Notes: generated by a model not told the origin, from the letters alone. 64,000 nt of DNA from Thermodesulfobacteriota bacterium (GCA_965205855.1 OZ242184.1:704001-768000); one strand, 5' to 3'; counted from the first letter of the stretch, positions 8 through 5,867 are shown. Program-made: numbers and translations.

Positions 8-13
8 TGTCAA
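8..13 (-). promoter_or_regulatory. Perfect -35 hexamer TTGACA abutting the left att arm
   Basis: Minus strand reads ...GGGA-TTGACA-AAGTCCG at the window edge. Confidence 0.5.
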
Positions 14-189
14 TCCCTTTTTTTTCCATTCTCTTTTTCACTCTCTTTTTTCCATTCTCTGGCGAGTGCTCTAATGATCGCTTTGATGACCGCTTTCGTA
101 ATTCTGAAAATGCCCCATCCTACGAGGATTATTATGCCTACGTATAATACGAGTGTAATTATCTCAATAGGGTTTTGGTTGTTCTCCAT
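10..189 (-). CDS. 59-aa single-pass membrane protein, candidate lysis protein (not in ORF track)
   Basis: My translation: MENNQNPIEIITLVLYVGIIILVGWGIFRITKAVIKAIIRALAREWKKESEKENGKKRD*. ATG directly follows the H stop (TAA-ATG). TM helix, basic amphipathic helix and charged tail. Confidence 0.75.
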   Translation of the reverse strand: MENNQNPIEIITLVLYVGIIILVGWGIFRITKAVIKAIIRALAREWKKESEKENGKKRD

Positions 190-777
190 TTAATTTTTTT
201 TATTAAAACCTTTCCAAAACTTTTTTTGTTTCTTTAGTTGATTTGTATTGTGGTTCTTTATTTTTTTTGTACCCATACTGATTAGGTCTACCCATGTTAG
301 AGGATCATGAAGGGCTCCCCTGAGTTGTTTATGGGACGTCATTTTATCCAACCCCTTGATGTTTATACCTAAGCTGTCTGCTATTGCTTGAGCTGCTCCT
401 GGATTTCCGCTGTTAAATGTGTCTGTTACTATTTTGGTTAGTTGAGCTTCTTTGTTTAGCTCTGCTTGATACCGTTGTGTTTTTGCTTGCATGGCAGTGT
501 TAGCGATTTGGCTCATATTCTGCAATTTTTGCATTTTGAATTGATTTCTGATTTCTGCTCCCGATGTATTTGCCTGTGTTTGTCCTGCGATTGACTGCCC
601 GCTTGCTCCTGTTCCTGCCCAGTCCCAAGGTGATAATCCTGTTTGTTTAGGACCTTCCTCGTAGAATTTTTTCCATTCTCCTCCTGTTGGAGCTTTTGGA
701 CGTTTAGGTTTTGACAGGATATTTCCTATGATTCCGCCTCCGGCGCTTACAAGCGCTGCTGTTAATGGGTCAGCCAT
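190..777 (-). CDS. DNA pilot protein (H/VP2-like)
   Basis: Ala/Gly-rich hydrophobic N-terminus (LTAALVSAGGGIIGNIL) and Gln-rich coiled-coil middle. TAATG coupling to Rep. Confidence 0.75.
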   Translation of the reverse strand: MADPLTAALVSAGGGIIGNILSKPKRPKAPTGGEWKKFYEEGPKQTGLSPWDWAGTGASGQSIAGQTQANTSGAEIRNQFKMQKLQNMSQIANTAMQAKTQRYQAELNKEAQLTKIVTDTFNSGNPGAAQAIADSLGINIKGLDKMTSHKQLRGALHDPLTWVDLISMGTKKIKNHNTNQLKKQKKFWKGFNKKN

Positions 778-2138
778 TACATATATGTCCTATATTCATG
801 TGAGTTATTTTGCTTCATCCAATCCTCCGGCGGCGGTATTGCTATTTCGCTGGCATATCTGTCTCCGAGTTTTTTCACAGTATTAAAGTACCTCTCCCTT
901 TGTTGGCTGTTTTCTGATAAGTATCGTTGTACCGTTATTGAGTCTTTCTTTAAGGTCCTGCAATTTTTGCATCTTTTCAATTCGTTCCGTTTCTGCATTC
1001 TCTCCGCTCTTCTCATTATCCAGTCGTCCGACATCCCAACCATATTCTGTTTGAATTTCATTTGCAAATTCATTAAGTTCAGCGTTTTTCTGCTGGGTAG
1101 CGATACGCTCCAGTTCTTCGCGCTCCATTCTCTCCCATTCGCTGGCAAATTCGCCAGTTTCTCCAGCAGGTTCTTTCCCAGTCCCTGGCTTGTTATTGTT
1201 CGGGTTAATTTTTTCGTTTTCCTTTTGTTTTTCCATTCTGATGCCTCCTCTTTGGTGCTGTATTTTAATAGGTATCTCGTACATTTTTCAAGTGTTTTGA
1301 GCGGTTCTCTTTCTCGTCCGTAATACATTACTGCTCTTCCTTCCGGCGTTTTCTTTTCTTTCTTTTTCACTTCAGTGGGGAATACCCACTGACACTTATT
1401 TTTCCAGACGTCTCCCATGAACCTTATAGGCTGGCATGAAGTCCATCCCCATTTCCATAAGTTTCCCACGGCGGCGATTTCTCTTTTGTTTCCGGGTCTG
1501 CCTCGGTTTGGATCCCGCTTCCATTTTTCCGGAATCTCTTCCGCGATGATAATAGCGTGTATGTGTCCGTGGTCGTTTTTCTTTCCGTGTTCCGTTGTTT
1601 TGATATATGTCACTCCCTTCCAAGCATCTCTGTTTTTCCTTTCTACGCCTGCCGCGCTTGCGCACTCTCTTTTGAAGGCTTTGATAAATTTGCTCCATTC
1701 CTTTGAGCCTGCTCCAAAAGCCTTTTCATTATGATATGGAGTTGAGGTTAGTGTAAGAAACATCATATAAGCCTGCGTGTTATCATTCATAGCCTTTTGC
1801 GTCTGTAAGTAGTGTTTTCTTTTTCTTGCTTCTCTGTTGTGTTGATTCAGCAGTTCCCAATGTGGATTTATAGGTTGGTTTTCTCTTTTTTCCAGTTCAA
1901 GTCCTATCATTTCAAGTGCTTTATTTAGAGTTGGTATTCCGACTTGTTTAATAGTAAAGTTAGTTTCCCCCTTTAAGGCATATTTTTTTAGATCTTGTAT
2001 CAGGTTCGTGTTTTCCGCTGTTTGGTATTCATCGTTCACGATTTCATTTAGATGTCCCGCATAGCGGTGGTATTCTATTTTTTCTACAAGTTTTTTTGCT
2101 TGCCACCGTTTAAGTGCGGGTCCTCCGGCGGCAAGCAT
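777..2138 (-). CDS. Rolling-circle replication initiator (phiX174 gene A-like HUH endonuclease)
   Basis: Motif I FLTLT, motif II HGHIHAII, motif III YLLKY (two Tyr). DPNRGR...WKWGW...WVFP parallels phiX A DPNFGR...WPYGY...WLWP. Confidence 0.93.
   Translation of the reverse strand: MLAAGGPALKRWQAKKLVEKIEYHRYAGHLNEIVNDEYQTAENTNLIQDLKKYALKGETNFTIKQVGIPTLNKALEMIGLELEKRENQPINPHWELLNQHNREARKRKHYLQTQKAMNDNTQAYMMFLTLTSTPYHNEKAFGAGSKEWSKFIKAFKRECASAAGVERKNRDAWKGVTYIKTTEHGKKNDHGHIHAIIIAEEIPEKWKRDPNRGRPGNKREIAAVGNLWKWGWTSCQPIRFMGDVWKNKCQWVFPTEVKKKEKKTPEGRAVMYYGREREPLKTLEKCTRYLLKYSTKEEASEWKNKRKTKKLTRTITSQGLGKNLLEKLANLPANGREWSAKNWSVSLPSRKTLNLMNLQMKFKQNMVGMSDDWIMRRAERMQKRNELKRCKNCRTLKKDSITVQRYLSENSQQRERYFNTVKKLGDRYASEIAIPPPEDWMKQNNSHEYRTYM
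883..1236 (-). CDS. Overprinted internal scaffolding protein (gene B-like), 117 aa
   Basis: GAGGAGG 7 nt before ATG 1236. The ATG lies in the Rep E-W codons (EASEWKNK), the register where phiX B starts in AKEWNN. Acidic, helical, similar size to B. Confidence 0.8.
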   Translation of the reverse strand: MEKQKENEKINPNNNKPGTGKEPAGETGEFASEWERMEREELERIATQQKNAELNEFANEIQTEYGWDVGRLDNEKSGENAETERIEKMQKLQDLKERLNNGTTILIRKQPTKGEVL

Positions 2139-2224
2139 TATCTCTCTGGCTGTGAACTGCCCGATTGAGTCTATTTCTGCCGTTTTAATCCTACTTACCC
2201 CCTTGGTCGTTTTGTTTTCGTGTC

Positions 2225-2713
2225 TTAGGAGCCACTTTTTTTACCACTTTTGCTTGGGAAAGCTGTTTCTATTATGTTTTTTCGGAACTCGTCAACCTCT
2301 AGTGTTTGCGTTCCCGTGGCGTAGAGCCACATAAGCGAGTGTATTTGAGTTGCGGTCATTCCTGCGGCAAAGTTTCCGGCTTCGTCATTTGCCAGTGTTT
2401 CCGCTCGTCTTGCACTCTCATACATCATTGCCACCTTGAGCCAGTTTGTTGGGCTCACAAAGATTACACAGTAGGCTGCGATTACATTTGCGCTAATGTC
2501 TACCATTTCGATACCCATTAGATCTGAGCTTTGTCTTATGAGTTGGTCAACCGCGGCTCTGTTTTCTGCTCGTTCTGATTTTAACCAGGGTTTTGGTCCA
2601 ACTACCGTTTCCCATCTTGCCCGCGGTATTCCGCTTTCCCGGATTAGGTCCGGGAAGTATATTTCCTTTGCGTGACGGATTGCCGTCATTACCCACTCGT
2701 TTGCTTCAATCAT
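2225..2713 (-). CDS. External scaffolding protein (gene D-like)
   Basis: KPWLKSERAENRAAV...DLMG...VIAAYCVIFVSPTNW aligns by eye with phiX D KVWIATDRSRARRCV...DFVG...FIAAVIAYYVHPVNI. 162 aa, AAGGGGG RBS. Confidence 0.85.
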   Translation of the reverse strand: MIEANEWVMTAIRHAKEIYFPDLIRESGIPRARWETVVGPKPWLKSERAENRAAVDQLIRQSSDLMGIEMVDISANVIAAYCVIFVSPTNWLKVAMMYESARRAETLANDEAGNFAAGMTATQIHSLMWLYATGTQTLEVDEFRKNIIETAFPSKSGKKSGS

Positions 2714-5258: not shown

Positions 5259-5279
5259 AGTCTGCGTCCTCCACTTTTT

Positions 5280-5483
5280 TTACTGTGTCTCTTTCTCTTC
5301 ATTTGGATCCACTCCTTTTTTTATTTTGACTTCTCCGAGTTTGATAGTTCCGAGCTCGGTTTCAGTCTCTAATTTTGCGGCGCTCACATAGCACCCAGCT
5401 AGGTTGATGCCCAAAAGCCCGGCTAGGGCTCCAATGAACGCCTTTTGTATGTATTTGTTGCCTATGATTTTTTTAAATTTCAT
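5280..5483 (-). CDS. Small phage lipoprotein (67 aa)
   Basis: Basic n-region, hydrophobic h-region and LAGC lipobox. GGAGG RBS and ATGA overlap with the upstream ORF. Confidence 0.75.
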   Translation of the reverse strand: MKFKKIIGNKYIQKAFIGALAGLLGINLAGCYVSAAKLETETELGTIKLGEVKIKKGVDPNEEKETQ

Positions 5484-5821
5484 TTTGCCTCCTTGTAGAA
5501 CGTAATGTTTTGCCGATGTAGAAGTTTTTCGATTTGCTTTTTGACCAGTCGAGGAAGCCTCCAGAGTCTCAAGCCTACATAGCGACTACTGCCTGATATT
5601 TTGACATTCCAGCCGTGATACATAACGTCTTCTTTTTTGTTAAGTCCATAATCATAAGCATCCTGTATGGTAAAGTCGTTGTAGTATTCTTTGTTGTGCA
5701 TAATTTTAGTAACTTTATTACCTTCCATCTCAACACCAGTGATTGGGTAGTATAGTTTTCTTTGCTCAACCGTTCCGAGAGGGTACTGGAACTCAAAATT
5801 TGTTTGTATTTCTTCCATCAT
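5480..5821 (-). CDS. Phage hypothetical protein (~113 aa), first gene after att
   Basis: GGAGG-aaagg-ATGATG at 5821/5818. The ORF-track ATG at 5848 lies inside the dif XerD arm. Confidence 0.7.
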   Translation of the reverse strand: MMEEIQTNFEFQYPLGTVEQRKLYYPITGVEMEGNKVTKIMHNKEYYNDFTIQDAYDYGLNKKEDVMYHGWNVKISGSSRYVGLRLWRLPRLVKKQIEKLLHRQNITFYKEAK

Positions 5822-5839
5822 CCTTTCCTCCGTTTGTAA

Positions 5840-5867
5840 AGTTAACATAATATAACTTATCGGACAT
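5840..5867 (-). other. dif-type XerC/XerD recombination site (prophage att)
   Basis: ATGTCCGATAA-GTTATA-TTATGTTAACT: 11-6-11 layout. XerD arm matches E. coli TTATGTTAAAT at 10/11. Confidence 0.92.

Follow-up and report, generated by a model that had tools for sequence, protein, structure and literature searches.

A candidate junction promoter at the joined ends of a dif-integrated Microviridae prophage in a Thermodesulfobacteriota bacterium

A complete Microviridae prophage occupies the beginning of the 64,000-nucleotide (nt) stretch of a Thermodesulfobacteriota bacterium analyzed here (GCA_965205855.1, OZ242184.1:704001-768000), which is called the window and whose base 1 is base 704001 of a single-contig genome of 1,401,274 bp. 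The prophage is 5.86 kb long (window 1-5865 plus the 21 preceding bases) and is bounded by a direct repeat with the layout of a dif site. Its sizeable open reading frames (ORFs) all lie on the minus strand and are nearly gapless, so that about nine genes form one co-directional block, with 20 nt between its start and the right dif copy and 4 nt between its end and the left copy. Once the two phage ends are joined, no other sequence on the phage coding strand matches the sigma-70 consensus as well as the one across the junction, which stands directly before the first gene. It is a serious possibility, falling just short of probable, that this sequence is a promoter which functionally contributes to the expression of the gene block. 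Its activity, its relative strength, the effect of its occupancy by XerC and XerD (XerCD) and its role in lysogeny are what we infer from the sequence.

The two halves of the candidate promoter come from opposite ends of the phage. At the left end, the perfect TTGACA that the initial annotation had placed next to the att arm is present on the minus strand at 8..13, where the window reads TGTCAA, and this candidate −35 adjoins the position of the 11-nt XerC arm. Just upstream of it is a GGGA + A8 tract (14..25, minus), which encodes the Lys-rich C-terminus of the last ORF, and the TGA stop codon of that ORF is contained in TTGACA itself. An UP-like function of the tract at 14..25 is possible. 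At the right end, the dif copy (5841..5865, minus) holds TATTAT at 5852..5847 and TATGTT at 5849..5844, and is followed by a 19-nt leader (5822..5840, minus) with GGAGG at 5831..5827, 5 nt before an ATG; the candidate start codons are the minus-strand ATG triplets at 5821..5819 and 5818..5816. These coordinates agree throughout with the right end as it had been described. A script that joins the ends of the circularised phage reproduced both of the proposed arrangements, TTGACA-N15-TATTAT, which matches the consensus at 11/12 positions, and TTGACA-N18-TATGTT, which matches at 10/12, ~20 nt upstream of GGAGG-N5-ATG. The circular coding strand has three sites of at least 10/12, among which the junction alone has a perfect −35 and alone lies in non-coding DNA.

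The direct repeat is 27 nt long with one mismatch between its copies (window 5839-5865 on the right, genome 703979-704005 on the left). The left att site does exist, with all but its last 5 nt lying just before the window. Read on the minus strand, both copies show a XerC-type arm ending in GTCCG(A/G)TAA, a 6-nt centre GTTATA and a XerD-type arm beginning TTATGTTAAC (the 11-6-11 architecture of dif is given in the available text of PMC7062461). Their lone base difference falls in the XerC arm, which reads GTCCGATAA in the right copy (attR) and GTCCGGTAA in the left copy (attL; genome 703981-704005, minus, the last 5 nt being window 1..5). Since four of five congeners carry the GTCCGATAA of the right copy, this arm is host-type, and the left copy has the XerC arm of the phage, as after a crossover in the centre. 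The whole genome contains two dif sites, none beyond attL and attR, whereas each of the five congeners has one, so the double copy occurs only in this genome. In congener G028, an empty site consists of recF (76% identity), dif and a HIT-family gene (86% identity) with no insert. The insertion point is the chromosomal dif, between recF and the HIT-family gene. The GC skew changes sign near 700 kb, and its profile is disturbed at 450-600 kb; there, ~150 kb of the genome (450,000-600,000) has 57-60% G+C, compared to 45-50% elsewhere, with an inverted GC skew and a disturbed cumulative curve. Two recombinases of the Xer type are encoded by the host, namely XerD, which exceeds its cut-off with 341 bits, and a second Xer-like one (290 bits). 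As judged from these features, the element is an integrative element exploiting Xer (IMEX) that would use the host recombinases, and its dependence on XerC/XerD is predicted. A ~20-nt element with the core TATCATTGAATATT was also observed at window about 5903-5925, 38-58 nt outside the XerC arm of dif. Its conservation can be recognised in each of the six genomes of the genus (this one, L131, L132, L134, L135, and L136), and the copy here overlaps a weak promoter-like match in the host flank.

The joined form was observed in sequencing data. Part of the locus is contained in six of 12 runs, which come from three studies and none of which is RNA. The coverage of run X1 resembles that of one cultured organism. 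In this run the host-flank contigs average 315x and 348x, compared to 541x for the phage core contig (window 388-5144); toward both ends the core splits into a reference version at 301-307x and a variant at 250-262x. A 410-nt variant contig with a mean depth of 250.7 contains the right end of the phage, a dif copy and the left end including TTGACA. Its path runs from window 417 downward, through an unalignable segment replacing 24-340, to window 23-1, dif and nine letters equal to window 5830-5838. This contig is an attP-type junction (the junction sequence itself is ~90 nt). By its depth, the joined form roughly equals the chromosome in abundance; the contig depths are rough (a shared 143-nt contig has 409x where 541x is expected) and do not separate a free circle from a tandem dimer. 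Oddly, the junction contig is unbranched despite 45 nt in common with the reference attL. No contig of X1 covers the host-left flank or the reference version of window 24-340, and such holes prove nothing. In run X4, from another study, a 521-nt contig bridges attL in the same way as the genome. The two phage variants in X1, apparently a single-organism culture, have an identical 4.76-kb core and differ in their att-proximal genes, with 21 differences in window 5630-5828 and with unalignable segments in place of 24-340 and about 5144-5516. Over window 1-23 the variant is identical, so that TTGACA and the adjacent 10 nt are kept, and divergence sets in immediately beyond.

In a circle or at a tandem junction, the left end would set TTGACA, behind its A-tract, directly against the XerC arm, and the AT-rich dif centre together with the XerD arm would supply the −10-like TATGTT 18 nt downstream. 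The transcript would start ~15-20 nt before the GGAGG-ATG of the first gene, and the junction would serve the gene block as a sigma-70 promoter of modest strength. The initial annotation held that integration splits the main promoter of the phage, which cannot be maintained. The −35 occurs at the left end only and the −10 in the dif core at both ends; because the −10 candidate lies inside the duplicated core, nothing is split, and the whole TTGACA-N18-TATGTT persists at attL, facing outward. Integration would uncouple the promoter rather than destroy it, with the whole unit at attL firing outward, antisense into the 3′ end of recF. The unit at attL (genome 703940-704013, minus) does point in this direction, and if it were active, the prophage would yield an antisense recF transcript. 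At attR, the position of the −35 in the integrated state is taken by AACGTA (5868..5873, minus), exactly as had been noted; it lies at 5873..5868, 18 nt upstream of TATGTT, and matches TTGACA at 1/6. The integrated gene block would be left with the dif −10 alone behind a host flank that lacks a −35, and for this reason its transcription should drop on integration and would recover once Xer had excised the phage or where copies stand in tandem. That dif and Xer thereby constitute a repressor-free lysogeny switch, in which the main promoter, its −35 lying on the other side of attP, faces the genes on the excised circle or at a tandem junction and nowhere else, and is tuned by XerCD occupancy of its spacer and −10, is a more ambitious proposal and we regard it as unlikely. 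The TATGTT motif of the XerD arm is widely conserved among bacteria. The mechanism may be general, since any −35 that abuts the XerC arm is placed 18 nt from the TATGTT of this XerD arm.

Several considerations tell against such a role for the junction, beginning with chance. With the dif core and leader fixed, the flank was replaced in turn by all 30-nt stretches of the phage and of a 400-kb portion of the host, and a match of at least 10/12 at spacers of 16-18 arose for 2.8% of flanks from the phage coding strand, 2.4% from the other strand and 3.6% from the host. The junction match is real and only mildly beyond chance (p about 0.03); the statistical case is modest, and the dif core itself resembles a −10. 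The phage coding strand contains TTGACA three times. Spacing is a further difficulty. The host uses canonical TTGACA/TATAAT-type promoters: in a survey of 477 upstream regions, TATAAT was the most enriched hexamer upstream of host genes (60 against 9.5 expected), and sites of at least 10/12 occurred at 0.85 per kb in upstream regions compared to 0.10 per kb genome-wide. For the 218 good −10 boxes of this survey, −35 matches of at least 5/6 numbered 0, 4, 9, 14, 4, 1 and 1 at spacers of 14, 15, 16, 17, 18, 19 and 20, respectively. The signal peaks at 16-17, and the spacers of 15 and 18 available at the junction are rarer (4 each, against 14 at 17). The better −10 sits at N15 (TATTAT, 5/6) rather than at N18 (TATGTT, 4/6), and in the N17 register the −10 would be TTATGT, which matches at only 2/6. 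Two RpoD-like genes of the host (genome 1198770-1199480 and 38053-38763) score near-equally, at 282 and 278 bits, and neither reaches the 354 bits set as the cut-off of the RpoD C-terminal model.

The origin of the hexamer and its conservation raise similar reservations. In four of five congeners ACAAT stands just outside the XerC arm, where the phage side has ACAAA, and this matches the 'ACA(A)' of TTGACA; the 'ACA' may represent extended homology to dif. Half of the hexamer therefore admits other explanations, since ACA(A) resembles the dif flank and TGA is a stop codon. Searches of viral, genome and metagenome contigs with the capsid protein or with a two-sequence alignment recovered no relative in which conservation could be followed. 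The retention of TTGACA in the X1 variant is weak evidence of conservation and not independent, because the 4.76-kb core of the variant is identical to the reference. Furthermore, XerCD bound over the spacer and the −10 might block the promoter on the circle too.

These points can be put together into the explanation that the junction match is a coincidence: an AT-rich dif core is inherently −10-like, TTGACA is composed of the stop codon of ORF 10-189 and of homology to the host dif flank, and other signals transcribe the phage. Such an account remains a serious rival, though we hold it to be less likely than not. It is favored by the chance value obtained with the core fixed, by the ACAAT of the congeners, by the suboptimal spacing and by the number of promoter-like sites in window 1-6500 (nine, compared to 12.5 ± 3.8 expected), which shows no over-representation. 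It has to accommodate, however, that no other site on the coding strand joins a perfect −35 to an acceptable −10, that the junction falls in one of just two non-coding stretches and at the correct distance from a strong ribosome-binding site, and that the host does use this consensus. The only other non-coding phage stretch, an 86-nt gap (2139..2224, minus), has no promoter-like site of at least 9/12. A further point against the junction promoter is that weak sites in the host flank could still feed the integrated block. Two inward promoter-like sites (9/12) lie upstream of attR at 5905..5952 on the minus strand, namely TTAACT-18-TACAAT (5952..5923) and TAGATA-18-TATCAT (5934..5905), and further upstream is ileS, on the same strand as the gene block.

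The dependence on circularity could also be topological. Promoters in the left part of the phage, such as the 10/12 site TTGAAA-18-TAAAAT inside rep (1262..1291, minus), would read through attP into the first genes, and integration would linearise this unit, a situation comparable to that of Tn916. The genes are indeed co-directional, the internal site is found at 1291..1262, and a scan of the minus strand inside the phage for terminators listed a single weak terminator-like site (5 pairs, at 2480..2467), the interval from the last ORF to attL being free of any. The perfect TTGACA is nevertheless left unexplained by read-through, which is compatible with a junction promoter and not exclusive of it; as the explanation in its own right we consider it quite unlikely. 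Alternatively, nothing may be silenced, in that a dynamic or tandem lysogen expresses the phage genes continuously at a tolerated level. Two near-perfect direct copies of dif would allow Xer to excise and re-integrate the phage constantly, or a dimer would keep an intact junction, and the depths in X1 point the same way (250.7x for the junction contig against 315-348x for the host flank, with both variants together at 541x). According to the available text of PMC7062461, circles were detected by polymerase chain reaction in 4/4 cultures of gokushovirus lysogens, and integration is reversible. The contig depths are rough, however, with circle and tandem indistinguishable by contigs, and the deposited genome has a single copy; we consider continuous expression somewhat unlikely. 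The abundant junction argues for circles or a tandem copy and weakens the proposed switch: the silence of the prophage is an assumption rather than an established fact, and it is not established for this culture because of that abundance. A tandem dimer would leave the promoter to that copy which lies downstream of the junction.

The first gene of the block (5480..5821, minus) encodes a 113-amino acid (aa) orphan with no family match. For its start, GGAGG-N5-ATG at 5821 is likelier than an ATG at 5848; the latter, in the XerD arm of dif (window 5846-5848, minus), is in frame with the gene, and the resulting ORF 5480-5848 reaches into the att site. Next on the minus strand are a 67-aa ORF with a lipoprotein-like signal sequence (5280..5483; phrog_14979, E=0.00095) and the gene of an F-like major capsid protein of 553 aa (3597..5258; PF02305, 1.6e-17; phrog_514, 9.3e-26). 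ORFs of 214 aa (2953..3597) and 80 aa (2706..2948), both on the minus strand, received no assigned function in the PHROGs and Pfam scans. A gpD-like scaffold/head-morphogenesis protein is encoded at 2225..2713 (minus; phrog_1386, 1.9e-10; PF02925, E=0.0014, below its cut-off) and the rolling-circle replication initiator (Rep) at 777..2138 (minus; phrog_713, 5.9e-20; PF23343, 4.4e-08). A 195-aa ORF with a Gly-rich N-terminus (190..777, minus) has no family match and may be pilot-protein-like, by its composition only. The last ORF, of 59 aa with one hydrophobic helix (10..189, minus), has a best PHROGs match of E=0.0097. Two long minus-strand ORFs overlap rep in other frames, at 883-1284 (acidic, 133 aa, downstream of the 10/12 promoter-like site 1291..1262) and at 1396-1698 (extremely basic, 100 aa, Arg/Lys-rich). 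Either of them could be an overlapping gene, which is a common trait of microviruses.

The initial annotation had also described a phage with no regulator. This stands in so far as the family scans (PHROGs and Pfam profiles), which covered 10 ORFs, matched no integrase or recombinase family and no family of DNA-binding regulators among them; it goes too far in that the uncharacterised product of the first gene could be a novel regulator. An Atlas search with this product gave no match, a homologue search returned only the protein itself, and a single-sequence AlphaFold model was unusable, with a mean predicted local distance difference test (pLDDT) score of 44.5. An Rfam scan of the 10-kb locus had no match at E≤0.1.

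The lineage of the phage is very isolated and is of interest regardless of the promoter question. The sole other protein more than 50% identical to its capsid protein (53%) in 5.8 billion proteins is P0002, which a contig of 6,699 nt encodes. Against 1.84 billion representatives, HMMER gave 255 matches at E≤0.001, and only the query's own cluster fell below 1e-30, while a phage database gave seven distant capsid matches, the best having 22-31% identity over at most 31% of the protein. Phage_F was found in one of 101 genomes of the host order, which is this genome itself, and in one of 120 genomes of the phylum, with none in the other 119. The dif-core pattern matched three loci in viral contigs; in the small one, L013, the match lies inside a long ORF and the layout is not that of a microvirus. 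In genome contigs the pattern matched 117 stretches, of which the 80 loci listed have one match each, many of them in metagenome-assembled genomes of Acidobacteriota, and these matches are uninformative on this phage. A 24-nt pattern of dif plus leader had 0 matches in metagenome contigs. A 567-aa capsid match, P0100, was tried as a route to the Escherichia coli gokushoviruses and rejected, since tblastn returned phiX174-like phages. The nearest database relatives of the capsid are phiX174-like F proteins and 'pequenovirus'-type genomes. These relatives and the D-like scaffold gene make this temperate phage seem closer to the scaffold-D-bearing microviruses than to the gokushoviruses. As far as the sequence comparisons go, the element is a new, very divergent and isolated member of the dif-integrated Microviridae.

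Phages of the Microviridae rank among the most abundant, and their prophages have neither an integrase nor a recognisable repressor. The control of expression after integration is left unexplained in the available text of two papers on dif-integrated microviruses. If the junction acts as proposed, a promoter that faces its genes only when the ends are joined would be a simple cis-acting answer to the control of the lysogen and a new variant of an established regulatory principle where lysogeny control lacks an explanation. A literature search found no report placing a promoter across a dif-type att site, and the word 'promoter' appears once in the available text of PMC7062461 (in the reference list only) and 0 times in those of PMC3091885 and PMC9865509.

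The closest parallel is the junction promoter (Pjunc) of insertion sequence (IS) minicircles. In the IS3, IS21, IS30 and IS110/IS1111 families, as the available text of PMC12288879 describes, the −35 and −10 come from opposite ends, are workable only when joined and drive the element's own genes, and some IS junctions form no promoter at all. The logic proposed for the phage is alike, in that joining would set a candidate −35 and a candidate −10 in front of its own genes. The phage differs in that IS circles are made by transposase, whereas its ends would be joined by Xer site-specific recombination of the host, and in that the phage −10 is part of a duplicated core, so that the whole unit survives at attL; the activity of the phage junction is predicted. 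If confirmed, it would be a Pjunc-like promoter without a described precedent among phages and Xer-exploiting elements, and the logic of the IS junction promoter would extend to viruses and to such elements. The transfer genes of Tn916 are promoterless when integrated and are transcribed across the joint after excision, according to the available text of PMC5812530. In Tn916, as proposed for the phage, circularisation couples a gene block to upstream transcription; the promoter of Tn916, however, is distant and complete and reads through att, and Tn916 encodes Int/Xis and regulators.

Two further phages show how integration can bear on expression. In the sib retroregulation of lambda int, attP lies between the gene and a cis control element, so that integration rewires expression without a trans factor; sib, however, is a signal for 3′ RNA processing instead of a promoter, and lambda encodes a repressor. 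CTX-phi is integrated by Xer and forms tandem arrays at dif, and whether it is productive hinges on the junction of these tandem copies. It differs in being filamentous, in integrating as folded single-stranded DNA (ssDNA) and in having the repressor RstR.

The nearest biological counterparts are the enterogokushovirus EC6098 and BMV1-7 of Bacteroidetes, which the available texts of PMC7062461 and PMC3091885 describe as integrase-free ssDNA phages with dif-like repeats and a reversible lysogeny dependent on XerC/XerD. For the E. coli gokushoviruses, phage output is lower from integrated lysogens than from carriers of mutants that do not integrate, and circles coexist with prophages (available text of PMC7062461); both the low yield and the coexistence would be explained by a junction promoter. 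The element analyzed here is likewise a small integrase-less ssDNA phage between dif-like repeats, and it is set apart from EC6098 and BMV1-7 by a very distant capsid, a D-like scaffold and a host of another phylum.

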